NCBI GenBank assembly: GCA_964501515.1 | Contig: CAZCSS010000002.1 | Coordinates: 1 to 44,471, forward strand | Direction of reading: 5' to 3' | Origin: an uncultured archaeon | GTDB lineage: Archaea > Aenigmatarchaeota > Aenigmatarchaeia > QMZP01 | DNA length: 44,471 nt | Position numbers and translations under genes: made by a program | The notes under the pieces: generated by a model | Seen by the model: the letters and a program-made list of their open reading frames with translations, nothing else | Told to the model about the DNA's origin: nothing | Database searches by the model: none | Part shown: positions 9,950-44,471 of the stretch, piece after piece | Numbering within the stretch: the stretch's first letter is position 1 | Layout of the letters: every line of letters starts with the position of its first letter

Positions 9950-10133
9950 GGTTAAATAATAAATTAGGGGTTTATTAATTAAACTTATATATATGTAATA
10001 GTGAAGACATATTAATTTTTTGTCAAAAATTCTTTTTGAAAAAGTAACATTGTAAGCACGGTTTAAGGCAAAACCCCTCAAAAGGAAAGGGTTTTATATT
10101 ATATTTATATAATATTTAACAGAAGGGGTATGA
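9950..10133. promoter_or_regulatory. Divergent A/T-rich promoter region with TATA-like boxes for both flanking genes
   Basis: This 184-nt stretch is the most A/T-rich in the window. The minus-strand box TTTAATTAATAAA ends about 22 nt before the ATG at 9949. On the plus strand, tttatataat (10104..10113) lies 21-30 nt before the ATG at 10134, with GAAGGGG at 10122..10128 as a possible short SD. Spacing fits archaeal TATA to TSS distances and short or absent leaders. Confidence 0.4.
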
Positions 10134-12148: not shown

Positions 12149-12167
12149 GATTGTTTTGTGGGGGTTT

Positions 12168-12179
12168 GATATAAATATC
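12168..12179 (-). promoter_or_regulatory. TATA-like box for the NUDIX gene
   Basis: The minus strand reads GATATTTATATC followed by 19 nt and then the ATG at 12148. This spacing fits a leaderless archaeal transcript. Confidence 0.4.
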
Positions 12180-12260
12180 AGCAAAGGAATAATATTATAT
12201 TAGTTCTGATGCGCTGCGGCTTCCGCGGCCTGTCCCCTTTCAGATGTGGCCTCTGTGTGG

Positions 12261-20088: not shown

Positions 20089-23000
20089 TTAGCCTCCTGC
20101 CTTTTCAAGCCTCTTCTTCACAGAGTCTATGTAAGTCTTGGCCATGGTAAACATGGTCTGGCGGGTCTTGTCTTTCGCAAGCTTGAGCTCGAACTCGATG
20201 TCTGTGGTGTCAATCTTCCTGTCTTTGAGGGCTTTAGTCCTTCTCTCGAGCTCTGCTATTTCCTTATCGTATTTTATGTACTCTGCTATGTCCTTGTCAG
20301 AAAGCCTTCCTGTATCGTGCAGGAGCGGCCTGAACTCGATGAAGTAAGGCTTTCCGTCATTGTATTCCGCATTCTGGACCTGGCCTGTTCCTGTCTTTAG
20401 TTTAGTTATTGTTGCCGCGTAATTAAATCCGTACTTCTCCTTGACCCTCCTGATGTCGCCTGTATACTTGGTTCTGAGCTGTATCTCTGTCGAGATGTTG
20501 GCCCTGATGGCTCCCTTGAAGTCCATCAGAACCTGGGATATGAGCCAGAGCCCTATTCCCCATTTTCGGAACTCCCTGCAGCCCCTTTCAAGGGCGACAT
20601 AGCCGCCCTTTCCGCCGTACTTGGGCAGCAGTCTGTGGACCTCGTCATAGAATATCATGCACTTCAGGCTTGTTGCCTCTGGCCAGGGTATCTTGAATAT
20701 ATCTGAAATGGTTTTCCTGACAAAGCCGTCCAGAACCGCGGGCTCAAACTTGTTTATCAGGAACACTGTTATCTCTCCCGGATTCATGTAGTTCCGGATG
20801 TCTATGTCCATGTTGGGGTCTTCAACCTGAACGATGCGCCCCTTGAATCTTCTGGCATCTGTTGGTTTCAGGCCGAACTTGGGATAGAGCTTGAGCATCT
20901 TGGGGTCCCTGCACGGCCTCAGGAAGCCGGTCCACTGGCATGTCGGGTCGAACACTATTACAGGTATCTTTCTCTTGAGCAGCTCCTCGGCACACACCAT
21001 GGCCGAGACCGACTTGCCCGAACCTGTGGAGCCGGCTGATATGCCGTGCATTCTGAGCTGCTGCATATCCCAGTAAGCAACCACATCGGTCTCGGCTATC
21101 TTGCCCACAGGGAATGTGTTTGGTCCTGGCTGCGGGAGTTTCTTGAAGTCCATCGGGAAGATGTATCTGGCCTTCTTGGCGGTTTTCTCTTTGTAATACA
21201 TGTATGCGCGCCTTCCTATATAGAAGCTCGGGAGTATGGCGAAGAGAATGAGATATGTTCCCCAGAACCAGAAAATGTTCCTCAGGGCCACAAGAACAGG
21301 GGGGAGTTCTATCACATCAAAGGTATCTACTGCGATGGCTGCCTTCCTGCCGTTCCAGTAGGTCACATTGGCCTCGAGGGTGTAGCGATCATAAGGTATG
21401 TCTTCTGGAAGGGATATCTGATGCTTCATGGTCTTGACCTGGTCCACAGCGAGTGTTTCCTTTGTCATGTACATCAGTTTTTCGTCCGAAAGCCGCTTGA
21501 CTTTGAATTCTGCCACAATGTCATTGATTGATGCTGTTTCTCCCATGTTTATCAGTGTAAGTTCAAATGTGAGGTTGCCGCCGGGCTCAATGGCTTTTGT
21601 GAGGACTCTGACCTTGACGTCAAGAAGCGGCTCGGGTGTTCTCTCAATCCTGACGGTGACAGGCGTCCTGTGCGTGATGTTCCTGCTGACTATCTCTGTT
21701 ATTATGTCTCCTGTGTATATGCCTGGTGGGGTTGTGGGAAGGGCGTAGAGTTTAACCTTGAGGATGCCCGTATCCTTTCCTGATATGTTCATCTCGGGCT
21801 TTTCTATCTGCACAAGTTCCCATACGTTTCCTTCAACCCGCGTCTTTGCCTGTATCATTGTATCCCTGTTGTTCAGAATCTCTACTGAGTGGATCTCGAA
21901 CTCGCCCTGCTCAAGCGTGACGAATATCAGGGTGGATTTTATCTCAACCGGAACCGAAGGCATGCCGGGCGGGGCCACCATGGCTGCTCCGCCTCCTCCC
22001 CCGCCTGCTGACGGCGGTGGCGGCGGCTGGGGTGTAGGAAGCGGACAGTCAGAGGGGCAGGAAGTGGTAGACTCCCCGTAAGAGGCCTCGCAGGTCCCGT
22101 CGCCGCAGATGAACTGGGCCAGAACATAGACATCTCCCAGCGTAGTGTCAGATGCCGTTACTGTTTCATTTATAACATCAATTGTGCTGGCAAGCCTCGT
22201 CCACGTCCCGTTGCATCTTGTATACTGCTTCCAGCTGTCGCATTTGTACAGAGCAAGGTTGTCTATTGTGAACATGTCAGCGGACTGGGAGTAGTCCATT
22301 GTGATATTGAAACTGCTCGAGTTCATGGCGGTCCTGATGAGGACCCCATTCCTTATGGGGCCGTTTCCTATCTTCATCCTGTTAATGCTACCAAACGTGT
22401 AGGGGTTGTAAACGTCAGCCAGGAGCGGGGTGTTGTATGTTGTGAACGTGTCATTCCATATCCTGGTCACGATGTCATAGTTCCTTCCGTCTATTGTTGC
22501 GTTATAATATCCCGTGTCCGGGTCGCTTGTTACATTTATTATGAGTGTGCTTGATCCGTTTCCGTAAAAGTCAAAGGTCACATTCAGGGGAGCAACATAA
22601 GGCTTTTCAATATCCTCTGCGATTCCCTGGAAGTTCACCGAGGGATATATTTCAAAACTGGTGTTGGTGGTGTTGCAGTTACCTGACTTGTCGCATGCTG
22701 TTACATTCACTGCATATACGCCAAGCTGGGATGTGTCATTCAGGTAGAGTTTGTAGGTATGGACAATGCCTGAACTTGAAACATAGATAAAATCGTACGG
22801 GTATGTGGTTGTGTTCGGGAATGTTATCTCTCCTGCTACACTCTGAACGCCCCCGCCTTCTGTGATGTTGGCTGTTATCACAGCTGTGGTATTGGCAGGT
22901 ATCAGGGGTGGGACATAAAGATCAATGTCTGGTGGATTGGGGTCAAAGTATACAATGGAATCGTGCTCAAAGTCAGACAAAACCAGAGATATGTTGGTGA

Positions 23001-26000
23001 TGGAAGTGTTGGTGTAGTTTGCTGTCACATTAAGGCCGAATGCTCCTTCCTGGCTTACATTGGGAGCCTGGAAGGAAAGGACCCAGTAGCCGTTAGAGGG
23101 GGAATACGTGCTGCTGTTGAGGGTTATTGGTATGCTTGTGGAACTGTTTGACATGATAACAGCAAATTCTACACCACCGGTTACTGGTTCTGTTGTGTAA
23201 TTCACATACGCTATGACATCTATCTGGTCGCTTGCATTAACGTTGATCTTGGGATTGCTGCTCGTCGGGCTGGTGACATTGACAAAATAGGGATGAACTG
23301 TCATGTTGACAAGGCTTATTCTCTCTGGTGGGTTGCCTGATGTGTTCTGAGTTTTTATGTATCCAGAATAGGTGTATTTGCTGTAAACCACGGGCGCACT
23401 GTAATTGACATAGAAATCATAATAATCATTCATCTCCACATCTACTGGTGTGTTATCATTGAACCAGGCATAGCCAAAACCGAATATATTGCCCCAGTAC
23501 GTAACACCCAGCCTGACGGGAGCGTTGCCTGTGTTATGAATCTCTATTGTTCCCAATTCCCCTGTTGTCCCCTGTATAACCTCTTTTGTGAGATTCTCAG
23601 GCAGCTGGGTCCATGAAATGTTCTGCGGTATTGTTAGGAAGAGTTCAATCCATGCAGAGACGTTCTCGGAACTGTTTGCCCGTATGGTAGTGTTATACGT
23701 GCCTGCGGGATATGTACCAGGGACAGATATTGTTATATTCACCGAGGCGTTCTGACCTGATTCCAGAACCGGCACCCAGTCAGGGGTAAGATGCACAGAA
23801 AAGTTCTCACAGAAATATGGTGTGCTGTTACCAGAATCATCGCACCACAGGGTTATGTTTGTTACATTAACATTGCCTGTTGACAGCAGGATGGTGGTGG
23901 CATTGGCCGTGGCATTGGCAGCAATAATGGTTGTTATGTTTTCATCAAGGAACTCCATTGCGGGATTGGAAAAGACATTCACCAGTATGCCGGTCAGATT
24001 GTAAGCAGTTGTATTGTCCATATTGGTCCAGTTGGCTGTTACATTAACAGTGTAATTGCCCGGGGCTGTTCCGTTTGCCACTGTTATCCTGCTCTGGTTC
24101 TGGCCTGATGTGTATTTAAGCAGGTCGCCGAAAAAGAAATAATCCGGCGAGGCGCTCCAGTTCAGGGGAAGTGTGATGTTGGAGGATATGTTGAACGCCC
24201 TTGCCCAGGCCGGAGTAATGTTTATAGCGATGTCAAAGCTCTCGCCCCAGTATATGGTTATGTTGGTTATGTTCACCTGCGTCACGTTCAGGATTATATC
24301 TATTGGTGTGCTGCTCGCGGCTGTTATTTCATAATACTGGGTACAGGAAAGCAGGCCCATGGTGTCATTTGCGCATATCCTGAGCATATGGGTTCCGTTT
24401 ATCTCTGAACTGTAGCTGGAAAGATATGTGGGCGCATATGTGTTGTTCATGTCAAAGGAAAGGTGGTTCTGGTCCTGGACAGAATAGCTCAGGTAGGTCA
24501 GGTAAGAGGCATTTGCGGGCGAACCGCTCTGATTCTGTATTGTAAGATTGATTGACTGATTGCCCGGGAGGATGAAACTTGTACCTGCCTGAACAGCGTC
24601 AATGGTGAAGTTCTGTCCGTCTGAAAGGGACTGGTTTTCAGCAAGTAGAAGACCATTTATTGTGAGGTTAAAGTACATCGCTGTCCCATTGATGTTCTGG
24701 ACTGTGATGTTGAAGAAGAGCATAGTGGTTGTATAGTTGGTGCCAATCTGCTCAGTGTAATTGAACCCCTGGTCAGGGTCAGTGGCGTTGTGAATGAGCT
24801 TTGACTCGTTGATGTAAAACGTATCATTGGGCCGAACAGCTTCCACCCATGCATGGGACACTACAAAATTGTCTGTTATGTTGGCGCTTATGTTGACCTG
24901 CTCATAATACATCTCAAAAATCATGGGATTGAAAACCACGTCAGTTATGTTTGGTGGTATGTCAGTGACATTAAGCCAGAAGTCCACTACTCTCTCCTGC
25001 GGCGTGGCACTGCTGTTCCTGGTAAGCAGCTGGACGTAATACATTCCTTCGGGCTGGCTTCCGGGAACAAGATAAGTGACATTCACTGTTTTGGAGAGTT
25101 GTTTGCCAAGTTCAAAATACTCATCGCTCAGGAAGACCAGCCCTGAACCATTCTGGGTTTTGTATATCCTGAATGCTATCTTGATGTTCCCTGTGTTGTT
25201 TACCTGTATTTTGCCCACTGTTCCGTTTGTGTTTATGGGCGCGAGGAATGTGCCGAATGTCGCGGGAGACTGGGTCCAGGTGCTGTTCACCGGGACAGAC
25301 ATATTTATTACAGCCTCGTCATATTCAGCATTGTCAGAAGTTGCCCTCATAAGAGTCCAGTATGTTCCCGGGTCCTGGCCGAGAGAGATGTTTGCGGTCA
25401 CATCAACCGTGAAGTTTGAACCGGCGTGCAGGTATCCCCAGTTTGTTGGAATGAGTATTATATTGCATGTCGGGCATTCAACACCGAAATTCCCCCCGAC
25501 AAGGGAGAGTTGTACGTTCTCCACAGCGTCATTCCCTGTGGCCCCCACGGTGAAGCTGCCCACATAGGTCTCCTCTCCGTTCGGGGTGACATTGTATATC
25601 ATTTCCTCTGTTATATTGAGTATTGGGTTCTCAGCCACAGGTAGATTGGTGACATTCTGGGTGGTGTTTACGGTTCTATCAGGGTTGGTCCATGTGGCAT
25701 TTACATAGAGTTTAATCAGTATTGGAGGTGTTCCGGCCGGAACCTCCACATGCAGGTCCCAGATACAGCTTGTGTTTGCTGACATGTTCCCGCACTCCTC
25801 GAAGGTGTCATTGATAATCAGGGTGTTGTTTGGGTCGTCAAAAGAGGTCAGATTCACGTAATACATATGCGCTGGGCCGGTGCTGGTGAAGTTTATCTCC
25901 ATATCGAATTCGAAGTTATCTGTCTGTGTTATTCCGTAAACAAGAATCTCTTCTGTCTGGTTTATCCAGCCGTAGGACTTGCCCCATACAGTGAAGTTGC

Positions 26001-38000: not shown

Positions 38001-41000
38001 CAGTGTCTGCTGTCACATCAAACTGCTGGGATGGCTCTGATTCTGAAGAGTAATTGAACGGGTGATCGGTTGCATTAAACTTTATTTCGTTTGTTCCCAC
38101 ATCAGAGCAGGAGAAGTTCACGAAATCAAAATTCATGGTCTTCGGATTGGCCTGGTCATCAGAGCAGGGGTCGCATTCCTTCTGGTCAAGAAGCTCCCAG
38201 TCATCCCATACACCAGGGGAGAGCTCAACCCTTTTCCAGAGATAGACCGTGACTGTGTTATTGTCCAGGTCATAGACATCAATGCTGAAGTTGAAGTTCT
38301 TGCCCCACGGGCCTGAAGGGAACTGCTGAACCTGGGCATTCTGGAGCACTGGCCGCGAGGCTAGATAGAAGGTCTCAGGGAAGGTCACGCTCGCATTCGG
38401 ATAGAATTCCTTTGAGGTGTTTATGGTTATGTTGTACCACTTTCCGTATTCAAATCCCGGAAGTGTGGTGTCACCCACCGTGGCATTGTACCAGCCTGAA
38501 CCATTGCCAGTGCCGTAATATATGTACTCTGATGTATAGGGCATCCCGTCTATATGGGCTACGGTATCTGCTCCCGGAACCAGGCCGCAGTTCTGAGCCA
38601 GGTCTGTGACATTGAATGTGATATTGAATGTGCTTCCCCTCAGTATGCTCTGGTTAACAGGATACCATAATTCAGGCTCGAATTCAGAGGTTATATTCAG
38701 GTAGTAGATGGCCGTGTCGTTTGTCGGTTTGTAATAGTTCTGTCCGGGATCTTCCACAAGTCCGACCCTCCATCTCTGCACGCCCACGCCATACGTGCAG
38801 CTTCCATCGGGGTTGAAATCCAGCTGCAGTCTTCCGAGAGAATCAGTGGTGTCCGGGGTTCCGGCATCCCAGGAATTCTGGTCAGAGGCGTTGGTGGTTA
38901 TCCAGAACATCCCGGGCGCGTTTGTGGCATTCGGATTTGATGGATTGTCTGAATCATAAACCCTGATGATCAGGGTAGTGGAATCCGATCCCACCCTGTT
39001 CACAACAGAATTGTTGCCCTGAACATAATCAAATCCCACATCGTCTCTCTCCACAGTAATGTTCACTACAGGTGTCTCGGAGTATCCGAAATCGTCCATG
39101 GTGGTGTTGAATTTTATGGAGATGTTGTCTCCTATCCTGCTGACACCCCAGACCTTGGACAGATTTATAACAACATCTGTCCCGCTTGTCTGGTTCTGGG
39201 CCTCGAATGTCCAGTCGCCCGAAGGGAGGATTTTCCAGTAAAGTCTGGTTGTTATGGTATCAAGGTCCTCGTCTGTGGCATTCACAGTGAAGTAAAAGGT
39301 CTCGCTCCATCCGCCGACCTTGGGAGTGGCGTTCGCATCCTCCAGAATCGGGTTGGTCTCAACCCAGAAGGAAGTCTCGTCAAGGACGAATATTTTTGTG
39401 ACAGAATCATTGTTGTAGTTTGGCCTGGTGCTGTTCATGGTGAAGTTGTATGCCCTGGTTTCCCAGCCTGTTGTGTTCAGGGAGCAGTTGTAGTACCCGT
39501 TGCTCTCATTTGTAACATTGTCCCCGGTGCAGTAATACTTCCCTCCGCTCTCGCTCGTGAATGTGAAACTCACAACAGAGTCATTTATCGAATATCCGCA
39601 CCAGGAAGAAACATTCGCCCTTATGGTGAGGTTCTTCTCCCTGAGGATTTTGGTCCCGTTCGGGATCTCAATCTGATTTACCAAATCGCCTTGGATGAAG
39701 ATGGTGTAGTTTTCCAGCGTCCTGTTGATTTCATACCGGTCGTCAGTGGTCTCTGCATACCAGAGCTGTTCTGCCACAGAGTAATCGCAGTCCGGATTGA
39801 AGAAGAAATTCGAATGCCCCGAGCCGTTCGTGTAGACAAGTGTTCCGTTATCAAAGTTGGAGTCATTGTATGTGACGTAAAATGTCACATTCATGCCGCT
39901 CGGATATTCGTTTTTGTCTGTGTCATATATTCTCACCACAAGCGTAGTGTTCTGGTCATAACTTCTGTTGACATGCGCCTCCTGGCCTCCTGTGTAGTTC
40001 CCGTAATTGAATGTTATGGAGACATTGTCCTCCTCAAGATAAGGTCCGGTGAAGTTGCTCGTCCAGTATGTATTGAAGGTGTCATTTATCCTGAACGTGT
40101 AGTTAGTATAACCCATCTCACCTGGCGTGAAATCTGAAACCTGAACTGAGCAGTTTCCCCCGCCGTCATATACAACATCATATCCTCTTTCCACAAAACC
40201 CAGGGACGTGTTGGTGTAAAGCGTGCATGTGACATTGTCCCAGTCAGGATCATCTATTGTTATGTTGTATGTGTACGTGGCACCCCAGCCGTCCCTTGAA
40301 GGGGTGACGTTCTCATTTGATGAGAGGGGATCTCTGTTCTCAAGCCAGAACCTGTAAGGCCAGGATGTGGTGTTCCCGTTGTAGAAGACCTTTGTGGCTG
40401 TTATATTTATTGACCAGTTGCCTTCGGGCTGCCATGAAGAATTCCATGTGCAGTTGTAATCACCGTCGCCCTCGTCGTGCGGTCCCCCGTAGGAGCATCC
40501 TGAGGTGTTTCCACCCAAGTAAAGGACGAGGTTGTTGTTCACTCCTGATATGTTGCCCTCCTCAGCATAGCAGTCGCTGTAAACCGTCCAGTTGATGAGC
40601 ACATCATCCGTGACGTTGAAGCTTGACTGATCAGGGGGCTGGTCAAGGGAAAGCTTGAGCTGGCCGATTACACTAAAGCCCTGTGTGGTGGAGTTCTCAT
40701 CATCATAACACTGGTCATCAATCACACCTGCCTTCCAGTAGAGGTTGTCCGCAGAATAGTTGCAGTCGGGGTTGAAGGTATAGTTCAGATACCCGCTGGA
40801 GTTAGTGACCCTTCTCGTGCCGTTGTCCTCATCACCAATGGTGTTGAGACTGATCCATACTGACCCGTTCACGCCCCCTGGAACAGGCTCGCCTTTGTCA
40901 ATATCATTAACCTGCACCACAAACAAATCAGTATCTCCGCCCTCTCTGTTGACCTCTGTGCTTTGGGTGTAAAAGTTCGTGAAGGATACGTTGTCCTTCT

Positions 41001-44000
41001 GCAGAGTGAATGTAACTTCCTGGGTATCGTTTGTGTATCCGAAACTGTCATTGGCAGTGAAGTAGAAATAACCCACACCATTGAGATAATCCTGGCATGT
41101 GAATATATGATAGAATGTTGTGTTCTCCCATGAGCATCCGCTAACATAATTGGAATCTATGTATGTCCAAGGCCCTCCTGACTGATTGGATACCCAGAGG
41201 GAAATGTTGACAGTGTCTGCCCCCATGTCTTGGTCGCAGTACTCAACCTTGAAAGTGAAATTATACCCCCAGCCCTCAAGATTCGTATCTATAGTGGGTT
41301 CTCTTAGCTGCGGCTTCACAACCAGCCTGAGCGCGTCATCTTCCTGGTCAAAGCCCGGGGAGTAGGAGTAGTTGCTTGAGTTCACAGTGATGTAGTGGAG
41401 CCCTATGCTGCCCTCCCCGCTGGCCCATGTGGCATTGTAGGTTCCGTTCTTCCAGTCATAGACGCTTCCAGGATTCCATGTACCTGATATGCGGAAGGCA
41501 ACCGAGATGTTTGCAACAGGGCCGCAGTCATCCTCAACCTCACCCCATATTGGGACATTGGTTCCGCGCAGGAAAGGCACTGTCCCTGTGGGATAGGTTA
41601 TGTTGTTTGCAAGACTGCCATTGATTGTAAGGTTATATTCTGTTGAATTTACATTGTAATAACATATCGGGTTGTCACTGCTGAAATCGAGCCCCACCTT
41701 CCATAACTGATCGCCCACATAATATTTTGGTGAAGAACACCCGGGGTTGAAGTCGTAGGTAAATGCAGAGGAGGAGTTTGTGGTATTGAAATATCCGTCA
41801 CTCCATTTGCTCCCGTCAGTAGTCACGTACAAATAGCCGTTCTTTCCTCCAAGACCCACTGTTCCTCCGGTATAGTTGTCATAGGCCTGAACCGTCAAAC
41901 TCGTGGCATTGCTTCCGATCCTGCTCACATTCACATTGTTCCCTGTGAGAACAGAGAACGTAACATTTCTTCTCAGGACTTCTATCTGATCATCCCCGCC
42001 AGTGGTGTCATTTCCTCCGTAGTTATCAGAGATGTTTATCAGATAATACCATGTTCCGTTGGGGTTGGTGTCTTGGCAGGAGGTGTGGATTGTGGTAAGA
42101 AGAACCTGCTGGTTTATGCAGTCTGTGCAGGTATCCTGATCAGAAAGAATCCAGCTCCCCGGCGAGCCCTTGGATTCCCAGAGATAGATTGTTACGGTGT
42201 CATCATCGTCCGTTATATTAACCGTGAAATTGAATCTGGACTTTTCAGGATTATCCCCCCACGGCAGGGATGTGGGACTTACTCCGTAATAGTCTATTAC
42301 AGGCGCAATTTCGTGGAAGAACATGTCAGGATAGATTACGCTGTGAGGGTTGTAGTAAACCCTTGAGGCGTTCATGTAAACCGAGTAGTTTCCGCCCGGG
42401 TTGCCTGTGACATCCCATGAGCAGTTGTAATATCCACTGCTCTCATTATTCACAGGGACGCACTGCTCTGTAAAGGAGTCGTGCTGAACAGTATAGTTCA
42501 CATTGGTATCATTTATGAGAACACTGCACTCATCGCTCACATTCCCCCTTATGGAGACATTCTCATTGTCATAGCACACCCAGCCGGCCGGGCAGCTCAC
42601 GTTGGAGATATTCAGGACCATGTCTCCGTATATGGTCATTGTAAAACTGGATGTTGTGTTTTTGTCTTCATAGCAGAGGTTGTCATATGTTCCTGCTTTC
42701 CAGCTTCTTTCGCCCGGGGAATACATACAATCAGGATTCACTATGAAGAGGCCGTATCCTGAAGCATTGGTCACATTGCTCCATCCATTGTCGTAATTTG
42801 TTCCGTTATAAGTCAGCCAGAGCGTGACATTGTTGTCCTGGCTGATATAGGTCAGGTTGTCGTCATCATACACCCTGATTATCATGTACGGGGAACTCCA
42901 CTGGTCTCCTGACCTGTTCACTGTTACGCCTGAACCTCCCTGAATGACAGAGATTGTGACATTGTCCTTCTCCACAAGGAAGGACTTAGCTGTTGTGGTT
43001 GCTGAACCCCCTGCACCATCAGAGGCATTGAACCTAAACCATCTTGTCTTATTGGCATCAGCGCATGTATGATAAACAGAAACATTAATGAAGAGCGGGT
43101 TGGCGCAATACTTGCATTCGCTTGTGTTCAGAAGAGTCCAGGGTCCTGAAGAAGAATTGCCTTCCCAAAGCCAGACAGTGACGTTGTCGTTGTCGACATC
43201 CTCCACTTTTACAGTGAAATTGGTAAGGGCGCCCCACCCTTCAGGGAAGACCTGGTCATGGGAGAGGAGAGGATTGTTGTTCTCATATGACTTGAGGAAG
43301 AACACATCCTCTCTTAAGGTGGAATTGGGGTTATAATACGGAGGGTTCTCTGCATAAACCTTGATGTCATAATAACCAGTCGGGTCCTGTTTGGTGGTGT
43401 TCCATTGACATGTATAGTTCCCGGGGTTCTGCTCTTCCAGAGGAGACGGTCCGCAGGTGTAATTCACGCTTTCATTGAATATCAGGGTTACATTAACATC
43501 TGCCCCGCTTATCATATTTCCGCACTCATCCGTGAGGTTCACATAGACGGTTATGTTTTCCTCCTGATGGTAGGAGGTGTTGTCTGTCCAGGGATAAGGC
43601 TCCAAGAACCCGATAATCGTGACATTATACACTCCTGATTGGCCGAACTTGTAACAGGCCTCGCTCTCATCTGTGTATCCTGTCCAGTTCTGCAGGCCGA
43701 CCTCATATTCACAGCCCGGTGAGAACTCATAAGTTGCATAACCGCTGCTGTTTGTGAGATTGTAGCCGTCTTTTGTATAGTTTGAGCCCGAACCGTTTAT
43801 GGTGATGTTGAAGGCCACCTTCATGGCCGGGTTGTAGGCCTCCTGCTGCCTGTCAGTGTCATTTACAAACAGCGTGAGAATCGCGGTTCCGGATGTCCTG
43901 TTGACCTGGGAGCCGTTGCCTGCTGCATAATGAATTTCTATGTCCTGCTTTTCCATAATAAAGGTGTTGTCATTGTCCGCATAATCCCCGTTCACAACAG

Positions 44001-44471
44001 AGGTTTCATAGCTGTTCTGGGGATTGGCATCGTCAGTGGCATTGAACTTGAAGTAAAAGGTGACCTGGTCCTGACCGTTCAGGTCACTGCAGGAATAACT
44101 CTCATTCCAAGCCAATGTTGTGTTGTCGCAGTTGGTGCACTGCTTGTTTCCGTCAACCTGTGTCCACTGGCTCTGGCCTGAACGCCTCCTCCAGAGCTGC
44201 GCCGTTACCGTGTCGCTCTCCTCCTCGCTCACATTCACGGTGAAGTTTCTCTGGAAAGACCATCCATCCTGTCTCGGTGTGACATTGGCCTCCTTGAGTC
44301 TGGGAGCTATTTCCAGATAGAATGCATGTATAGGGGATGTGACATTCGGGTAGACGTAGCTCTTCTCATCGCTGTAGTAGGTGTTTTCCGTTGATTCTGT
44401 CGCATTCATCGTGATATTGTACCATCCGCCGGGCTTTCCTCCTGTTGTAGGCCAGTAGTGGCGATAGAATC
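20089..44471 (-). CDS. Giant modular cell-surface protein fused to a C-terminal TM helix and cytoplasmic HerA/FtsK-like ATPase; 5' end lies beyond the window (at least 8,126 codons visible)
   Basis: The track gives 8,106 aa from the ATG at 44409. However, the frame stays open to base 44471. The upstream residues (..FYRHYWPTTGGKPGGWYNIT-MNATESTENTYY) continue a motif (GWYN-h-T ... YY) that recurs through the array, so the true start is upstream. There is no stop over 24.38 kb. The protein is a highly repetitive beta-rich modular sequence with N-x-S/T about every 15 residues (7 in the first 107 aa by my count). The stop is TAA at 20089..20091. Confidence 0.9.
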   Translation of the reverse strand, partial: FYRHYWPTTGGKPGGWYNITMNATESTENTYYSDEKSYVYPNVTSPIHAFYLEIAPRLKEANVTPRQDGWSFQRNFTVNVSEEESDTVTAQLWRRRSGQSQWTQVDGNKQCTNCDNTTLAWNESYSCSDLNGQDQVTFYFKFNATDDANPQNSYETSVVNGDYADNDNTFIMEKQDIEIHYAAGNGSQVNRTSGTAILTLFVNDTDRQQEAYNPAMKVAFNITINGSGSNYTKDGYNLTNSSGYATYEFSPGCEYEVGLQNWTGYTDESEACYKFGQSGVYNVTIIGFLEPYPWTDNTSYHQEENITVYVNLTDECGNMISGADVNVTLIFNESVNYTCGPSPLEEQNPGNYTCQWNTTKQDPTGYYDIKVYAENPPYYNPNSTLREDVFFLKSYENNNPLLSHDQVFPEGWGALTNFTVKVEDVDNDNVTVWLWEGNSSSGPWTLLNTSECKYCANPLFINVSVYHTCADANKTRWFRFNASDGAGGSATTTAKSFLVEKDNVTISVIQGGSGVTVNRSGDQWSSPYMIIRVYDDDNLTYISQDNNVTLWLTYNGTNYDNGWSNVTNASGYGLFIVNPDCMYSPGERSWKAGTYDNLCYEDKNTTSSFTMTIYGDMVLNISNVSCPAGWVCYDNENVSIRGNVSDECSVLINDTNVNYTVQHDSFTEQCVPVNNESSGYYNCSWDVTGNPGGNYSVYMNASRVYYNPHSVIYPDMFFHEIAPVIDYYGVSPTSLPWGDNPEKSRFNFTVNITDDDDTVTIYLWESKGSPGSWILSDQDTCTDCINQQVLLTTIHTSCQDTNPNGTWYYLINISDNYGGNDTTGGDDQIEVLRRNVTFSVLTGNNVNVSRIGSNATSLTVQAYDNYTGGTVGLGGKNGYLYVTTDGSKWSDGYFNTTNSSSAFTYDFNPGCSSPKYYVGDQLWKVGLDFSSDNPICYYNVNSTEYNLTINGSLANNITYPTGTVPFLRGTNVPIWGEVEDDCGPVANISVAFRISGTWNPGSVYDWKNGTYNATWASGEGSIGLHYITVNSSNYSYSPGFDQEDDALRLVVKPQLREPTIDTNLEGWGYNFTFKVEYCDQDMGADTVNISLWVSNQSGGPWTYIDSNYVSGCSWENTTFYHIFTCQDYLNGVGYFYFTANDSFGYTNDTQEVTFTLQKDNVSFTNFYTQSTEVNREGGDTDLFVVQVNDIDKGEPVPGGVNGSVWISLNTIGDEDNGTRRVTNSSGYLNYTFNPDCNYSADNLYWKAGVIDDQCYDDENSTTQGFSVIGQLKLSLDQPPDQSSFNVTDDVLINWTVYSDCYAEEGNISGVNNNLVLYLGGNTSGCSYGGPHDEGDGDYNCTWNSSWQPEGNWSINITATKVFYNGNTTSWPYRFWLENRDPLSSNENVTPSRDGWGATYTYNITIDDPDWDNVTCTLYTNTSLGFVERGYDVVYDGGGNCSVQVSDFTPGEMGYTNYTFRINDTFNTYWTSNFTGPYLEEDNVSITFNYGNYTGGQEAHVNRSYDQNTTLVVRIYDTDKNEYPSGMNVTFYVTYNDSNFDNGTLVYTNGSGHSNFFFNPDCDYSVAEQLWYAETTDDRYEINRTLENYTIFIQGDLVNQIEIPNGTKILREKNLTIRANVSSWCGYSINDSVVSFTFTSESGGKYYCTGDNVTNESNGYYNCSLNTTGWETRAYNFTMNSTRPNYNNDSVTKIFVLDETSFWVETNPILEDANATPKVGGWSETFYFTVNATDEDLDTITTRLYWKILPSGDWTFEAQNQTSGTDVVINLSKVWGVSRIGDNISIKFNTTMDDFGYSETPVVNITVERDDVGFDYVQGNNSVVNRVGSDSTTLIIRVYDSDNPSNPNATNAPGMFWITTNASDQNSWDAGTPDTTDSLGRLQLDFNPDGSCTYGVGVQRWRVGLVEDPGQNYYKPTNDTAIYYLNITSEFEPELWYPVNQSILRGSTFNITFNVTDLAQNCGLVPGADTVAHIDGMPYTSEYIYYGTGNGSGWYNATVGDTTLPGFEYGKWYNITINTSKEFYPNASVTFPETFYLASRPVLQNAQVQQFPSGPWGKNFNFSIDVYDLDNNTVTVYLWKRVELSPGVWDDWELLDQKECDPCSDDQANPKTMNFDFVNFSCSDVGTNEIKFNATDHPFNYSSESEPSQQFDVTADTVWYTIQSGAGDPSLNREGDDTAYFSVLVQDFDRNYEDLKAGYNGTFLVTTDGNSWGSEINTTTNGTGYLNLDFNATCEYTYGAQKWSAGIKYDKCYNPVGSMTSNETFHVIGQLKLNLYSPVQGDTYNVTDQINISLNITTDCPAQEGLQNQTYITIQLLSPNTSWLTCEPVINETGSREGWYNCTWDSSDQREGYWGIQINASKTYLNDNNTFFSQWFWLENLNATYSDMSVTPASDGWTREYTYTVNITDPDSDRINCSLYIDKYNGQGWTYKGMQTLYDPNGINNQQCSVTIHDFTGEDIGDNVFKFFIQNGEPSNYYNTSNVSGPHLEPSNVTLEFITQNNTKVNISGDSELLAVRVNDTDNASQGNWFPSGVNVTFWVYFNESGHDQGNLTATNATGYANVFFDPNCSYSVGPQLWFAGTTDNYYDPENTPENLTIIIMDDLNINMDSPLGEEYLRGTNVTFRFYVNDSCGNNITGIPDINITMISQLNGSYYYCGGTIEEGNGWYNCTLNTSGMAARGYDLMITVNKTYYNPGNLTLYYSDTQNNSFFIETTPVLTMPMINSSYDGANSGSWSESWNHSVRVTDEDGDSVTVTFYKRKWNPGSGWGSWEEIYPNSCGGDCDQSIVFAWEQGYPNDPTEYDPSTDLGTWQFKMNATDNADSPKPGGTSYSYEILGYNYTVEKDDMNITLYDGDGAFIWRNGSDSYTLSVQVRSVDQNNRLLSAGEANATVWVTKDHAIYGNITTFGTFTNSPGGFINKSFDPDSGCEYSVGIQKWIIGIHNNTEFKDLNSSEYTVEIWSYLNMTINTPDGEAYPIETGSNVPINYTVFDECGDGTAAINYTRITLAGTSTYYVENGSVADNGDGTYSHNWSTMSPEKASGWYNITIEALSDYYAGINKTRNNSFVLGYRPDITYDAYPPLSNVYSSTGDGGWGETWTFKVRCRDRDDTAGFNISLWKRKTPASDWELLDIQSCSSWPGYITKTFTINDFGCSDITPTGENSSFKFNASDQWNFTDETYPFNFTIVSDNVSLTVVDGYDTDINREGNIIQILSVQVNDTDRGADVNVSSGVNGTFYVTTNGSEYNTSYTNQTDFSGMLRYSFNPGCDHRYGNQKWLAGIYNDKCYSPRNSSESPIHVIGQLKLNLYSPVQGDTYNVTDQINISLNITTDCPAQEGLQNQTYITIQLLSPNTSWLTCEPVINETGSREGWYNCTWDSSDQREGYWGIQINASKTYLNDNNTFFSQWFWLENLNATYSDMSVTPASDGWTREYTYTVNITDPDSDRINCSLYIDKYNGQGWTYKGMQTLYDPNGINNQQCSVTIHDFTGEDIGDNVFKFFIQNGEPSNYYNTSNVSGPHLEPSNVTLEFITQNNTKVNISGDSELLAVRVNDTDNASQGNWFPSGVNVTFWVYFNESGHDQGNLTATNATGYANVFFDPNCSYSVGPQLWFAGTTDNYYDPENTPENLTIIIMDDLNINVTGPVGDTSYYKGDNVTINITITDNCGNNISGVNLNISAVSDQTGETFYCQNVYYEGNGKYNCTFNSSELRAGWLDLYVKANKTYYNANTTYVDNSFWLETVPVLTMVGVTPTVSGWGSYFNFSVNVSDEDGDDVRVYAYQREYGETSWGSPLLGPGGNYYAECYNCNTTNTITFTKGDFSCNDLSNNDTSLREFKFNATDDPPGPSDTDETPTENFTLTKGEVRIDHFYGNDTYIYRPSGSETLVVRLFDVGRNEYVKTPGQQTEFFVTQNGPGSSEISSGYRYSDGSGFANYTFDPGCSPKYSVGPQTWRAETVGSQCYLDNQSDTWNLTIWTDPLDVNMTIPDGEHYRRGIDNITMRMYVSDDCESEGTGAVTNATMTLKAEGPCSYTCSNYIDEGNQGGPAGWYNCTFADYDTQNWPVPSCIGWYNTTAIAQKAYYNDSSLTVDNDSFYFSTPPEIRWDSPVWKTSSPSEGWGATHTFRLRVRDYETSTDDVLNLTLWRSNTTSPYNWVLVENRNFTTYNGDNEILETFSHNFSCPDIGTNYFMIDVTDKWGDYNETTVNNFDLLKDRTAAYCNPGSGSCAPDRVVIREGGDSLQITAYFVDLDYGYTTVGSGVNGTVWITVNGSGTGSWDSGHFNSTNPSGDLIVHFDPNCTPEYKPGIQEWKAGVTGDECYYANANSTPINLTINGSLRVYLELPEQGNETAVGNPVNTTFNVTDDCGTMVNQTTSTITYISPTGSPESYTPFDLGNGWYNYTLDTSLHEGGWWDIMINTSRIYHSSNSTLWEDRFFLNNTPPEVGNFSVDPPAEGWAMTFTFNTSVRDQQQDNVTCILYTSTDGGSTWVYKNETIVYGGQGNCSLLATFDCTDIGSDNQYKFWLDDGTLGNDFNTTAQSGYTIEPQNASIYYIFGNESNVTRTGYNTTLLIVNATDDDLGAPVPAGHNITFWVTWNSSDPDSWQAGNITQTNSSGYANYYFDPSCDVNPYYRTGPQRWKAGISDQCYQNANLTEQLELNIYGNLEILITSPEIGHNYSRGEENATIQFNLKSDCGVGIDADLATAYLINENNETEYECYVDPLGAGLYECTRNTTGMLARWYHTEVNTSRTYYFNATNATYYHFFVYTNPVLSGEYAQKDPVGWNETQIFYVNITDEDLDNVTINLYVKDMEPEAPSWSLQNTTEVAGPNNTQIALEWRNQLFCELGNWSYYFEAIDKRSNIDETNPHNFTLEKDDIRVEYSFGNMSEVWRNGTGSIPLVLRLIDNDSNDTLAGGRNAHFWSTTNASDPDSWDEGTDAFTNGTGHITYNFIADAPRQNCNYTVGTLRWKGGTRGDSCWKDQNSSDYFVLLKSNLNPVILLPNSTGYLLNQYITLHGYLEDDCRPVENATITWKVISGRNQYTCTNQTELGGGYYNCTWRADYTGWYNATMKSAKQYYGENTTMKIDAFHVGYEPYIDKFKIEQVQPSLPFAYWDMAAGWGEYYKFTARVIDPDGDSNNITLWMSENRENWTLINYTYDSGKTIYNPVFWQRFSCPDIGKRYFKLRSTDDLNYWDDSNYDPTASQQEEPFVNTTVVNNKIIHSSGGGNYTILNISELIHDSSATPDTGFNYTEDINESGYLEFFNVTIENLNGGDMYLNLTVNSLLLAENQSLSDGQNFTIDAVQAGAAFALPGNQTINLSIGTDSGSPLGANYRAYLEYAVLDNGFVHTETISVSGIMDYFNITVQNKKGSAMHFNISVNGYLVAENHSLSDGQNFTIDAVQAGASFNMPSDDDTIPKNQTVILSVSNGSGGGDYSAYNVYLNYTAGVRILYIQPDNVTVSLQTSDTEVRRLGDDYANLTFRIQDTDFLNTYPDGVNGTVWVTEDHNNYTVSLDCDSSSGYCRVYYNASCSSLTGVQKWIGGSTDSCYQMINTSPASLDVYGQLYTEPYHPYGGEVLNRNMTYNLNISVLDDCTNFINTSNVTWFNQTWDVISTTNGTSASFYNSTWNISYNYPLGPETIKINSTLSYHDFGYNTTGIYIYGWSGLGLIYPENYTNVISGTNVSVTCHVSDLNLNQPIANYTVNVYNNNTLNLSTETNQTGYVTWLWATGQETPGWYEIKCNITDNSTLYYNDSVTAIYSLILVSRPLIIDDILVGNQSIHRNDSYTPYETNITVHVRDANVGNASGANVSFFNSTGLIGNCTTNGTGWCTIDTPYNPVDDAVPNNYTIYINATKPGLEDSETVKTNITVKGVLTTEIVKPENNTFVSKNSIQNFSAWVYDEMGINTTTTVNWYNETDWLASGNDTQIYLLYQSTGNRTFKAEATREFYDNGIDYVTLKLGGLADVYWISPPNLSIMEYPLSFNYTCRVLDGESFTPIENYPVEVWYNDTEWTYVGTFPTNQTGYVTQEFTPSQKGNVTFICNITDNESMELSANINNATALIFVRDVYPPEFSNVSIVPNTSIEAWLNTTNITSDVTDDTAVDTVTASITMPNQSVVNLTMANFTDTTYRVQYLPPIGGLYNVTIYAWDSPPESNMNSTFAGNFTVWGKSYGWINQTEEILVYGITQTDNFEFDMEINFTSTGPAHMYYVNLTSFDDPNNTLIINDTFEECGNMSANTSCIWDLHVEVPAGTPPILIKLYVNATWTNPDRTVNTTQNVTNLPVAENPILNITEEMIYNVTPNGEETYVGSFTVGATGNDAVENVQLSLVGGNFGVECPTCNIILIPTNWGYLHAGSNFTVDVTANISLGQDPGTYWTLMRATSDNAEYDEAVINMSVPVNSTWTQSPATFGTFLAPINTNGTVGKIQVNNTGNIKIAFRIYKTQNGSGLVFLSDEYFELGKQLSKTVNVTYLVPGSQPEGMYYVQLLTRNSSATPQERVVDFWLNVTDIPPNITDVVFNPMIFEMYYEQVNISANITDNFVVSHAWVEAVRPNDTFYINESKLIHNATDPDQGFNYTEQIGTNYTTTMLFFNITVQNINGTAMYFNLTINGLLLAENQSLSDGQNFTIDAVQAGTSFILPGNQSINLTIQNQSGSPANASYLTYLSYSVQDQNHLSFDMNNTYAPTYLSSYSSEINGTHMLRICANDTMGLLSCTQYYEITAASSTPIDIILNVTQVNITNITIYWGESFDIAINITPAWARAFNISSNITLPLNWSASPDYFFFGDLLKYTSGQNQSRITVANGTAPGNYTVNVTANWTNMDNTTAYNLTGILVNVFSNPAMEFLDENITTIIAANATANATTILLSTGNVNVTNITLWCDDSGNSTPYFCENFSVHLTPDWVPVLESGQNASVNITISVPGTYPAGTYNTTIRANSSENVSAWIELFLTIPQNISWTQLPENLTKEVIQGTTGELGTIEIHNTGNAPVRLGVTYWGNIFGFGYAWFNDNTPVDVEMNDYYDFYVNYSAPVVYSKYTYSGYIKTQNTSGNPPERISLVNMTVHPYFVNVTSPTSSNPKINVNASDQIDVIAYVNYTTEPVTGGVEFAVIMSNSSTSIPITLNSSTYSPSNGYWVLSFQAPNVSQEGAFGLNVTANYTNTSITNISLVLSDFEHDSIVYFDPNPPDIDLYVPPLIPANTTAVITANITEGGGVQSVAGEITFPNTTTYPYDFIYVSSSGIVHTYKLYLNDTSQLGVYAVNVTACDKSGNCNTTNTSFEIYPSVNFQGIAEDIEKPYVAPLNVTFDFYGNGSSTLIINVTSDPDTGYYNATIDGRNYDIVTRIWNDTFTTYNTPLLADVYNPYTFGSINRMKIGNGPIRNGVLIRTAMNSSSFNITMDYSQSADMFTIDNLALYKCDSWKQYTRCNGTWTRLASTIDVINETVTASDTTLGDVYVLAQFICGDGTCEASYGESTTSCPSDCPLPTPQPPPPPSAGGGGGGAAMVAPPGMPSVPVEIKSTLIFVTLEQGEFEIHSVEILNNRDTMIQAKTRVEGNVWELVQIEKPEMNISGKDTGILKVKLYALPTTPPGIYTGDIITEIVSRNITHRTPVTVRIERTPEPLLDVKVRVLTKAIEPGGNLTFELTLINMGETASINDIVAEFKVKRLSDEKLMYMTKETLAVDQVKTMKHQISLPEDIPYDRYTLEANVTYWNGRKAAIAVDTFDVIELPPVLVALRNIFWFWGTYLILFAILPSFYIGRRAYMYYKEKTAKKARYIFPMDFKKLPQPGPNTFPVGKIAETDVVAYWDMQQLRMHGISAGSTGSGKSVSAMVCAEELLKRKIPVIVFDPTCQWTGFLRPCRDPKMLKLYPKFGLKPTDARRFKGRIVQVEDPNMDIDIRNYMNPGEITVFLINKFEPAVLDGFVRKTISDIFKIPWPEATSLKCMIFYDEVHRLLPKYGGKGGYVALERGCREFRKWGIGLWLISQVLMDFKGAIRANISTEIQLRTKYTGDIRRVKEKYGFNYAATITKLKTGTGQVQNAEYNDGKPYFIEFRPLLHDTGRLSDKDIAEYIKYDKEIAELERRTKALKDRKIDTTDIEFELKLAKDKTRQTMFTMAKTYIDSVKKRLEKAGG
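20314..21114 (-). other. HerA/FtsK-superfamily (DUF87-like) P-loop ATPase domain at the cytoplasmic C-terminus of the giant protein
   Basis: Walker A GSTGSGKS at 21010..21033, verified on the DNA (ggc tcc aca ggt tcg ggc aag tcg). It is followed by ...LLKRKIPVIVFDPTCQW, which parallels the HerA G-x-TGSGKS...h-h-h-D-P-h-G-E-Y layout. Walker B is CMIFYDEVHRLLP (about 20638..20661). Next is RKWGIGLWLISQVLMDFKGAIRANISTEIQLRTKYTGDIRRV, matching the HerA pattern RK-x-G-h-G-h-h-h-h-[ST]-Q ... h-Q-h-R. Confidence 0.75.
21217..21276 (-). other. Single transmembrane helix separating the extracellular body from the cytoplasmic ATPase of the giant protein
   Basis: Translation gives IFWFWGTYLILFAILPSFYI, followed by GRRAYMYYKEKTAKKAR (positive-inside rule puts this side in the cytoplasm). 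This is the only strongly hydrophobic segment I can see in the visible protein. Confidence 0.8.
21949..22107 (-). other. Cys-motif (CGDGTCEASYGESTTSCPSDC) plus Pro/Gly linker (PLPTPQPPPPPSAGGGGGGAAMVAPPGMPSVP) at the base of the giant ectodomain
   Basis: Read directly from the reverse-complement translation. The Cys-motif is at 22045..22107 and the linker at 21949..22044. Confidence 0.8.
24584..24645 (-). repeat. Conserved roughly 60-nt core (encodes LAENQSLSDGQNFTIDAVQAG), copy 3 of 3
   Basis: cctgcctgaacagcgtcaatggtgaagttctgtccgtctgaaagggactggttttcagcaag. It is nearly identical to the cores at 28277 and 28571, while the surrounding roughly 90-aa domain is much more diverged. Confidence 0.85.
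28277..28335 (-). repeat. Conserved roughly 60-nt core (encodes VAENHSLSDGQNFTIDAVQAG), copy 2 of 3
   Basis: cctgcctgaacagcgtcaatggtgaagttctggccgtctgaaagggaatggttttcagc. Confidence 0.85.
28571..28632 (-). repeat. Conserved roughly 60-nt core (encodes LAENQSLSDGQNFTIDAVQAG), copy 1 of 3
   Basis: cctgcctgaacagcgtcaatggtgaagttctggccgtctgaaagggattggttttcagcaag. Confidence 0.85.
33560..34586 (-). repeat. Near-identical intragenic direct repeat, copy 1 (1,027 bp, one full three-domain module)
   Basis: It aligns base for base with 36653..37679 at an offset of exactly 3,093 bp. By eye I find a single mismatch (34573 a versus 37666 g, synonymous). The identical shadow ORFs in the track (33585..33776 = 36678..36869; 33919..34215 = 37012..37308) confirm it. 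Confidence 0.9.
36653..37679 (-). repeat. Near-identical intragenic direct repeat, copy 2
   Basis: Same evidence as copy 1. The encoded 342 aa (IGQLKLNLYSPVQGDTYNVTD...ENLTIIIMDDLNIN) occur twice in the protein. Flanking sequence on both sides is diverged. Confidence 0.9.

Follow-up and report, generated by a model that had tools for sequence, protein, structure and literature searches.

The window analysed here, a 44,471-nucleotide stretch of contig CAZCSS010000002.1 from an uncultured archaeon of the Aenigmatarchaeota, carries on its reverse strand a giant open reading frame (ORF; 20089–44471) whose 5′ end lies past the window edge. We are confident that this gene is a member of the SPEARE family of very large, mostly extracytoplasmic archaeal proteins, and it is a very large addition to that known family and not a new type of system. 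The locus as a whole is best explained as a hypertrophied SPEARE-family stalk with a HerA-like ATPase, a reading that we favour with moderate confidence. An original prediction, made from the letters of the DNA, had described a very long, glycosylated, membrane-anchored stalk or adhesin; what it overlooked or underweighted was the existence of a known family, the HerA-like cassette as the conserved part of that family, and a conserved operon around the gene.

SPEARE proteins were described from Nanohaloarchaeota by Hamm et al. 2019 (PMC6642349) as mostly extracytoplasmic proteins of up to 8,553 amino acids, with a transmembrane (TM) segment near the C-terminus, a conserved intracellular region, and at least one laminin-G domain in the ectodomain. 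The same study reported that intracellular regions like this one also occur in Woesearchaeota, Aenigmarchaeota, Micrarchaeota and Altiarchaeales, found the SPEARE of Candidatus (Ca.) Nanohaloarchaeum (Nha.) antarcticus by proteomics, and proposed a role in host attachment. Reva et al. 2023 (PMC10266531) reported a Sec signal, ∼75 immunoglobulin (Ig)-like domains, a TM helix, a ‘VirB4/TraG-like’ ATPase and a coiled coil, with a second VirB4/TraG-family ATPase gene immediately downstream, and proposed that the protein acts as a secretion ‘straw’. Published sizes are 5,998 amino acids for NAR1_1133 of Ca. Nha. antarcticus and 8,553 for the protein of Ca. Nanopetramus SG9 (PMC6642349, PMC10266531), with the giants BNXNv_0298 and SVXNc_0300 reaching 8,880 and 9,409 amino acids, respectively (PMC10266531). 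The earlier placement of the window gene ‘at the extreme of prokaryotic gene lengths’ was therefore overstated, as archaeal SPEARE proteins of 8,553–9,409 amino acids had already been published.

Membership in the family rests on the C-terminal part of the protein. The Ca. Nha. antarcticus sequence was taken from Supplementary Information (SI) Fig. S18 of Hamm 2019, and its last 1,115 amino acids were compared with amino acids 7000–8126 of the window protein by blastp, which returned an alignment of 371 bits (E 1e-114) with 29% identity over 1,066 collinear residues. The alignment spans the membrane-proximal domains, the TM helix, the ATPase and the coiled coil, and rises to ∼45–50% identity in the ATPase core. 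Because the C-terminal ∼1,070 amino acids align collinearly with the Nha. SPEARE at this level of significance, we place the window gene in the same family.

The order of parts that had been read from this end of the gene (a Cys motif, a Pro/Gly linker, two beta-sandwiches, a TM helix and an ATPase) was borne out. Modelling of the last 650 amino acids with AlphaFold2, using an alignment of 94 family sequences, gave a predicted local distance difference test (pLDDT) score of 91.3 and displayed the linker, the two sandwiches, the TM helix, a RecA-like ATPase and terminal hairpins. The outermost element (22042–22269, amino acids 7401–7476; all features of the giant gene are on the reverse strand) is a membrane-proximal domain, evident in the family alignment and aligned to SPEARE as well, that contains LALYKCDSW..C..WTR and, at about amino acids 7453–7476, the Cys motif FICGDGTCEASYGESTTSCPSDCP. 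A Pro/Gly-rich linker that is disordered in the model (21949–22041, amino acids 7477–7507) leads to two conserved beta-sandwiches adjoining the membrane (21310–21948, amino acids 7508–7720), which are defined by the alignments and by model regions with pLDDT >90, and which match tandem Ig/FnIII-like proteins in Foldseek. The only strongly hydrophobic helix of the protein (21214–21306, amino acids ∼7722–7752) was identified by hydrophobicity and in the model as a single TM helix, and is followed by a basic cluster, RRAYMYYKEKTAKKARY, that agrees with a positive-inside orientation. The ATPase (20299–21132, amino acids ∼7780–8057) and a set of C-terminal helical hairpins or coiled coil seen in the model (20092–20298, amino acids 8058–8126) complete the protein.

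The distribution of potential glycosylation sites fits this arrangement. The saturation with sequons noted previously is real: the whole 8,126-residue frame contains 521 N-x-S/T sequons where its composition would predict 144; 520 of these precede the TM helix and one follows it. N, T and S are abundant in the ectodomain, where K and R are scarce; K and R are plentiful in the cytoplasmic part, which has 2.4% N. Composition and model together point to a type-I topology, in which the sequons would be confined to the outside.

The cytoplasmic domain was recognized as a P-loop ATPase of the HerA-like (DUF87) type by Pfam, Foldseek, a family profile and its invariant columns. The Pfam DUF87 model (PF01935, the HerA central domain) scores 28.9 bits against a cut-off of 23.2. 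The best Foldseek match of the ATPase model is the hexameric DNA translocase HerA from Sulfolobus (4d2i, E 8e-13), with SIR2-HerA and HerA-NurA complexes next in rank, and none of VirB4, VirD4, TrwB or FtsK appears within the top 50 structural matches. When the family profile was compared with sequences from the PDB, HerA again came first (2e-8), with DotL (E 0.037) and FtsK at only ∼0.04. Because the DUF87, Foldseek and profile matches all favour HerA, the ATPase is, as judged from sequence and predicted structure, a divergent HerA-like member of the FtsK-HerA superfamily that lies nearest to HerA and not to VirB4. It looks catalytically intact: the Walker A motif (GSTGSGKS, 21010–21033) and the Walker B motif (MIFYDE, 20641–20658) are invariant across the 94 family sequences, as are REFRKWG and other basic residues. 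Matches in NCBIfam were at the P-loop level alone (CedD at 25.9 bits against a cut-off of 600, TraB and HerA_Thermprot), and the giant protein falls into no curated NCBIfam family, with all scores far below the respective cut-offs. A reading of the locus as a defence system was rejected, as PADLOC returned weak matches to HerA (36 bits) and mad8 (34 bits) and there were no partner defence genes.

Upstream of this cassette the frame is unbroken to the window edge, as originally claimed. Translated from 44469, it comprises 8,126 sense codons followed by its sole stop codon at 20089–20091, and a stop-free run of that length has a probability of ∼1e-180 by chance, calculated from base composition. 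An ORF listing that begins at the first ATG gives 20089–44409 and 8,106 amino acids; the residues ahead of that ATG (FYRHYWPTTGGKPGGWYNIT..., with ...GGKPGGWYNIT...) are a continuation of the repeat module that makes up most of the ectodomain, and for this reason ATG 44409 must be internal and the gene must extend past the window, in agreement with the original prediction. The same conclusion follows from an ortholog, P0129, which is collinear with amino acids 1–1944 of the window protein over 1,944 residues at 52% identity, with the alignment running to the interior of P0129 (amino acid 2525 onward). The additional upstream residues of P0129, at least 2,524 in number, hold another five divergent modules together with a head region no shorter than 1,055 amino acids. 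Because P0129 extends this much farther upstream, the full window protein is probably longer than 10,600 amino acids, with at least 2,500 N-terminal residues missing. If confirmed, such a length would top that of SVXNc_0300, the largest archaeal protein cited in the SPEARE papers (PMC6642349, PMC10266531); West-Roberts et al. list a few archaeal proteins of more than 10,000 amino acids, mostly from Asgard archaea.

The gene contains one exact direct duplicate of 1,013 nucleotides, present at 36653–37665 (about amino acids 2269–2606) and at 33560–34572 (about amino acids 3300–3637), with an in-frame offset of 3,093 nucleotides (1,031 codons). Recent in-frame duplication or gene conversion may have produced it; otherwise it marks a risk to the resolution of the assembly. 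It is the sole stretch that a short-read assembler could mis-resolve. This duplicate is one argument for regarding the ORF as an assembly artefact (a chimera or a mis-resolved repeat), as separate genes, or as a pseudogene, with no single product of more than 8,000 amino acids. The same view could draw on the frequent breaks of public assemblies within orthologs and their truncation by gene callers, and on the detection of cytoplasmic/TM and ectodomain peptides of the Nha. SPEARE in different size fractions, which suggests post-translational cleavage. We consider it very improbable. A stop-free frame of 24.4 kb would arise by chance only with the probability given above; the modules, the one duplicate aside, share 20–37% amino acid identity, which leaves nothing for an assembler to confuse and led us to reject a collapsed or chimeric repeat array; and if the duplicate had been mis-resolved, the gene would be longer or shorter by exactly 1,031 codons, equivalent to three modules, with its frame intact. 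Cleavage after translation would not split the product into several genes. The order of parts also recurs in dozens of independent assemblies (49 of them with a collinear architecture like that of the window) and in complete proteins of 3,586 and 5,175 amino acids. We take the ORF to be a genuine chromosomal gene of a DPANN archaeon, here one of the Aenigmatarchaeota.

The ectodomain is predicted to place at least 7,720 amino acids outside the cell, in a total of ∼70 beta-sandwich domains. Its larger part is an array of ∼330-residue modules, each of three beta-sandwiches (27667–44469, amino acids 1–5601, ∼16.8 kb), that was delineated by a jackhmmer self-search, an identity matrix, AlphaFold2 and Foldseek, and that is followed by ∼5.4 kb of heterogeneous domains, much as had been described. 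The self-search resolved 15 complete modules (amino acids 15–5042) and a 16th that is split (amino acids 5046–5266 and 5437–5601), in addition to a truncated module at the window edge. Identity between modules is 20–37%, with the exceptions of m8/m11 (90%), m7/m10 (50%) and m5/m8 (44%); the likeness of the first two pairs is due to the exact 1,013-nucleotide duplicate. A single module, modelled by AlphaFold2 with its paralogous modules as the alignment, folded into three beta-sandwiches (pLDDT 87; predicted template modelling score (pTM) 0.72), in line with the three-domain module that the original prediction had proposed for structural modelling. Foldseek matched this model to macroglobulin-domain arrays (complement, alpha-2-macroglobulin), to the extender repeats of giant adhesins (4p99, 6xi3), to mastigoneme proteins and to FN3 arrays. 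On the basis of the model, we regard the array as a generic stalk of predicted Ig-like domains.

The split in module 16 is occupied by two tandem copies of a ∼105-residue domain with the strongly conserved motif LLLAENQSLSDGQNFTIDAVQAG (28162–28857, about amino acids 5205–5436), identified from the translation, from DNA repeat family D2 and from the gap in the module matches. A third copy (24500–24830, about amino acids 6548–6660), with 71–77% DNA identity to the two in module 16, sits ∼1,100 amino acids beyond the tandem pair, and the copies resemble one another far more closely than the modules around them do. Pfam contains no match for the domain, which is a candidate ligand-binding or recently spread cassette.

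Between the module array and the membrane-proximal domain lies a heterogeneous, sequon-rich beta-sandwich region of ∼1,800 amino acids (22270–27666, amino acids 5602–7400). Pfam, which was run both on the whole ORF and on 400-residue slices, assigned to it weak or sub-threshold matches to Big_7, CarboxypepD_reg, Invasin_D3, bMG3, Filamin and NEW3. The Pfam names suggested previously proved to be mostly sub-threshold: CarboxypepD_reg reaches 21.7 bits against a cut-off of 32.3, and NEW3 passes (28.1 bits against 24.4) solely in a scan of the half-protein as a whole; Big_7 reaches 28.5 bits against 24.1. Neither Pfam run detected a lectin, protease, toxin or laminin-G domain in the 8,126 residues that the window shows.

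Homologs of the C-terminal 647 amino acids number 444 proteins; those at the top are aenigmatarchaeal proteins annotated as DUF87 (the best 75% identical), most of them truncated. A scan of GTDB with one genome per species, for which the locus count is a lower bound, yielded at least 580 cassette loci, mainly aenigmatarchaeal and for the most part of the giant form. The suggestion that the DNA comes from a small episymbiotic archaeon agrees with these searches, in which the closest relatives are DPANN archaea and mainly Aenigmatarchaeota: 31 of the best 80 loci are named as such, the other names are Micrarchaeota, Parvarchaeota, Woesearchaeota, Nanoarchaeota, Altiarchaeota and Nanohalarchaeota, and the rest are from uncultured or unnamed archaea. 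When the cassette ORF was traced upstream in these best 80 loci, 46 ran for at least 3,400 amino acids to the edge of the 10-kb flank, 8 closed at 727–2,757 amino acids and 26 were cut by the end of the contig. A hidden Markov model (HMM) of the window's module detected tandem modules in 49 of the 80 ORFs, in which the last module ends ∼2,450 amino acids before the C-terminus, as it does in the window.

The three-domain module itself recurs in several DPANN phyla. Among 1.84 billion cluster representatives, searched exhaustively with a profile, 834 proteins contain it (344 at E ≤ 1e-30), and since a word-indexed search with a single module had returned 2 matches, that smaller number reflects a limit of sensitivity and not rarity. 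The matches listed extend up to 6,938 amino acids and 18 matched stretches. Among them the complete proteins are of 3,586 amino acids (one module) and 5,175 amino acids (six modules), all larger ones being truncated, and no cassette-bearing protein is as long as the window ORF. At the other end of the range (complete relatives span ∼722 to 5,175 amino acids) are short complete members of ∼722–728 amino acids, which consist of a signal peptide, the Cys motif, the Pro/Gly linker, two beta-sandwiches, the TM helix and the ATPase. The HerA-like cassette is thus the conserved, family-defining part of the protein and the giant ectodomain is its variable part. In one relative, L005 (JGI Ga0480576_000008, positions 1–9290 of a 727-kb contig), the cassette lies behind a wholly different ectodomain of more than 2,000 amino acids made of S/T/R-rich ∼33-residue repeats (...SRLSSLYRSITSYFT...); that ORF runs off the start of the contig, and the public gene call keeps its last 969 amino acids. 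The N-terminus of the window protein is past the edge; three relatives (P0123, P0126 and P0127) start with signal-like hydrophobic segments.

Public contigs often end inside or just upstream of the gene (L001, L002, L003, L005 and many of L006–L085), and gene callers report C-terminal fragments only, for example of 485–932 amino acids. Because of both effects protein databases systematically understate the size of these proteins, and in practice such genes must be expected in pieces or shortened in public assemblies and gene calls. Literature searches turned up no description of the giant form or of its operon beyond the Nanohaloarchaeota, the remark on intracellular regions in Hamm 2019 aside, and nothing on DUF87 in connection with DPANN archaea.

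Conservation extends to the genes downstream. Starting 9 nucleotides past the stop of the giant gene is p580 (18337–20079, reverse strand), a 580-residue cytoplasmic coiled-coil protein that contains no P-loop and no ATPase match in Pfam or NCBIfam; in 81 of 85 related loci the immediate downstream neighbour of the cassette gene is a homolog of p580. It is followed by p1959 (12418–18297, reverse strand), a second large, sequon-rich surface protein of 1,959 amino acids with a signal peptide, three NEW3 domains and an MG2 domain, a Pro/Gly linker, a C-terminal TM helix and a cytoplasmic coiled-coil tail, for which a gene of the same type is syntenic in most of the 85 loci. On the forward strand are an archaeal MinD-type ATPase (10862–11668; TIGR01969, 222 bits against a cut-off of 201.75), syntenic in 33 related loci, and a conserved 215-residue protein with no family match (10134–10781), which in the closest relatives (11 loci) always adjoins MinD. 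The operons of the short forms contain a ∼340-residue version of the second surface protein and an adjoining MinD. One metagenome-assembled genome (MAG; CAYGBE01) holds a giant paralog (L042) together with a short one of ∼728 amino acids (L083), the latter with this ∼340-residue version and MinD; L047/L085 and L057/L082 are further paired paralogous loci, and a p580-like gene lies directly downstream of each locus.

A helix motif, (I/L)(S/T)x(E/A)xYxxxK...L, is common to p580 (where it occurs three times), the tail of p1959 and the C-terminal helices of the giant protein, and may be an oligomerization motif. In Pfam the SHOCT-like form of this helix (IS.EAY...K) is matched in the p1959 tail alone, with SHOCT at 17.4 bits against a cut-off of 27 (weak SHOCT/FIMAH).

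The remainder of the window holds genes with looser ties to the locus. A NUDIX hydrolase gene (11669–12184, reverse strand) between p1959 and MinD is found at that position in 2 of the 85 loci and, because relatives mostly lack it there, is probably a local insertion. A 135-residue protein with one hydrophobic segment and no family match (9674–10081, reverse strand) occurs in 3 loci. Beyond it are two back-to-back genes for long cytoplasmic coiled-coil proteins (1631–9681, reverse strand) of 1,416 amino acids (1631–5881) and 1,267 amino acids (5878–9681), whose stop and start overlap by 4 nucleotides and which have no enzymatic domain and weak coiled-coil Pfam matches. A homolog of the 1,267-residue protein occupies the matching position in L010, and L002 has there a 901-residue gene labelled ‘Rod_CreS (weak)’. 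The two proteins may be cytoskeletal or scaffold proteins tied to the surface-protein locus. No tRNA and no Rfam family was found in the window. The loci of relatives lie among ribosomal and translation genes. A viral or mobile origin was rejected, as there are no relatives in IMG/VR and plasmids (haloarchaeal) hold remote DUF87 proteins alone, at 23–24% identity. Given the ribosomal and translation neighbours and the absence of IMG/VR relatives, we conclude that this is a chromosomal, cellular system.

How such a protein might work can be sketched by combining the stalk, the ATPase and the operon, and we would put an adhesion-plus-motor mechanism at slightly short of an even chance. A Sec signal peptide on the missing N-terminus would export the ectodomain, whose sequons would be N-glycosylated. 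By analogy with other FtsK-HerA ATPases, the cytoplasmic domains could form a hexameric ring; because the ATPase would hexamerize, six stalks would be bundled into a fibre with a length of ∼250–300 nm, assuming ∼4 nm per domain. The variable distal part of the fibre would bind the host cell, and the ring, organized by the coiled-coil partner and positioned by MinD, would use ATP at the contact site, either to move a polymer (DNA or protein) or for mechanical work. In the original description of a glycosylated, membrane-anchored stalk or adhesin, the stalk, the type-I topology and the DPANN relatives have stood up and are joined by homology to the Nha. SPEARE; glycosylation and adhesion are properties that we infer. 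The fused ATPase and the length are atypical of the S-layer lattice protein that the description argued against, and the protein may yet have a role in an S-layer-like coat.

Several observations weigh against the favoured reading of a SPEARE-family stalk with a HerA-like motor. Complete members of ∼722 amino acids retain the operon with almost no ectodomain; because these short forms show that the core machine needs no giant stalk, they weaken adhesion as the primary role. The visible ectodomain has no known adhesin, lectin or laminin-G domain at the Pfam threshold, and the number of its modules may be off by three owing to the exact duplicate. The ATPase lacks a HAS-barrel, the TM helix ending ∼20–30 residues before the first ATPase strand in the model, and neither the window nor the related loci examined contain genes for NurA, Mre11, Rad50 or SIR2/DUF4297 effectors. 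Because the HAS-barrel and the NurA partner are missing, the DNA translocation activity of HerA is not simply transferable to this protein.

The main rival explanation would make the core a cell-autonomous machine of the envelope or of division (an FtsK-like chromosome pump, or an organizer of the envelope or pole), with the ectodomain as an add-on coat or sheath that does not bind a host. The short forms speak for it, as they are complete with a signal peptide and keep the operon with MinD directly adjacent, and some genomes hold short and giant paralogs side by side (L042 and L083, from one MAG). The position of the locus among housekeeping genes, the presence of MinD and long coiled-coil proteins, which positioning and division systems typically contain, and the nature of HerA and FtsK relatives as DNA pumps all point the same way. 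A DNA pump for division has no obvious need for extracellular domains, however, and even the short forms still keep two sandwiches and the Cys motif. The ectodomain is hypervariable, ranging from one module to at least 17 full modules (P0126) and to the S/T/R-rich repeats of L005, which fits a partner-recognition surface, and the family appears concentrated in host-dependent DPANN lineages. We judge this explanation unlikely, at perhaps one chance in several. Less probable still, in our estimate, is the apparatus resembling a type IV secretion system (T4SS) proposed by Reva et al. 2023, in which a VirB4/TraG-like ATPase would drive effectors through the stalk, as a ‘straw’, into the host. The architecture of the window protein is identical to that of SVXNc_0300 and BNXNv_0298, on which that model is based; precomputed Pfam annotations of some family members include T4SS-DNA_transf, TrwB_AAD_bind and AAA_10; and a TM-anchored FtsK-like ATPase resembles type IV coupling proteins (T4CPs), in keeping with the weak profile match to DotL. 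Yet the gene downstream of the window ATPase encodes a coiled-coil protein with no P-loop in place of a second VirB4-like ATPase, and Pfam and NCBIfam detect in the window no VirB4 N-terminal domain (PF03135), no all-alpha domain of a T4CP and no other T4SS component. Fold and profile searches place the ATPase nearest HerA, with VirB4, VirD4 and TrwB outside the top 50 structures, and a string of beta-sandwiches offers no evident conduit.

Attachment of DPANN archaea to their hosts and extraction of material from them are an open question for which SPEARE proteins, studied in halophiles only, are the leading candidates. The window provides a largely complete non-halophilic example, with the N-terminal part missing. 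Its conserved unit is a HerA-like membrane ATPase cassette within a fixed operon (coiled-coil partner, second surface protein and MinD) that occurs in at least 580 species-level genomes of several DPANN phyla; the ectodomain is modular and diversifies rapidly, with no array at all in the short forms and 17 or more full modules at the other extreme. Relative to Hamm 2019 and Reva 2023, the new elements are the affinity of the ATPase to HerA, the set of at least 580 loci, the spread of the module, the syntenic partners and the inferred length. A more speculative proposal, which we think doubtful, is that the giant protein, p580, p1959 and MinD form an undescribed, DPANN-wide, envelope-spanning contact apparatus, in which a HerA-like hexamer in the symbiont membrane would anchor a six-stranded glycoprotein fibre, the fibre would reach and recognize the host, and the hexamer would pump DNA or other polymers between the cells. 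If true, this apparatus would be the long-sought machinery for host-dependent nutrient and gene acquisition in DPANN archaea, and the hypervariable module array would be the determinant of host range.

Comparison with known systems helps to set these readings in context. Archaeal S-layer proteins are abundant, lattice-forming glycoproteins, usually without a cytoplasmic enzymatic domain; the sequon load and C-terminal TM anchor of the window protein are compatible with such a protein, and its fused ATPase and extreme length are atypical. Giant bacterial adhesins (MpIBP of Marinomonas primoryensis and RTX proteins of the LapA/SiiE type) and halomucin fall in the same size range of 8–15 thousand amino acids and have a tandem Ig-like extender, with 4p99 and 6xi3 among the best matches to the module. 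These proteins differ in being exported by type I secretion systems or secreted, in being anchored in the outer membrane or released, in having near-identical repeats and in lacking a TM helix with a cytoplasmic ATPase, whereas the repeats of the window protein are ancient and diverged.

FtsK-HerA pumps move DNA or protein across or along a membrane. Those represented by FtsK/SpoIIIE, Streptomyces TraB, the type IV coupling proteins TrwB/VirD4/DotL, EccC/EssC of type VII secretion and the archaeal Ced ATPase share with the window protein a TM anchor and a cytoplasmic ATPase of the ring-forming superfamily, and weak P-loop-level matches connect them (CedD, TraB, DotL and FtsK). Against this, the window scores are far below the cut-offs, there is one TM helix per protomer, partner components are absent from the window, and it is solely the giant ectodomain in front that puts the TM helix on the N-terminal side of the ATPase. 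HerA itself (S. solfataricus 4d2i, and SIR2-HerA) is the best structural and profile match, with DUF87 over its cut-off, a RecA-like core and Walker A and B motifs in common; the window ATPase differs in having no HAS-barrel and no NurA, Mre11 or Rad50 neighbours, in being fused to a giant extracellular protein, and in a sequence identity of merely ∼10–14% in structural alignments.

The closest system remains SPEARE, from which the window protein also departs in several respects. The proteins of halophiles are acidic, with Gly-rich repeats and laminin-G domains, whereas the window protein is built on a sequon-saturated, ∼330-residue, three-sandwich module and shows no laminin-G, protease or toxin-like domain by Pfam in its visible part, at least 2,500 N-terminal residues lying outside. 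Its downstream gene is the coiled-coil p580 where the nanohaloarchaeal giants have a second VirB4-like ATPase, its own ATPase is nearest HerA in searches where the published label is VirB4/TraG, and its inferred length is greater than theirs, the visible ORF alone accounting for at least 8,126 amino acids. In overall plan the two agree: both belong to DPANN episymbionts, and in both a giant tandem Ig-like ectodomain is joined, through one TM helix close to the C-terminus, to a P-loop ATPase in the cytoplasm and a coiled coil at the very end, the last of these being present in the nanohaloarchaeal giants as well (PMC10266531). They also have in common the YKCDSW..C..WT domain, the Gly-rich linker, the two sandwiches, and the motifs DPTxQW, YDEVHRLL, REFRKWG and FRPLLH.

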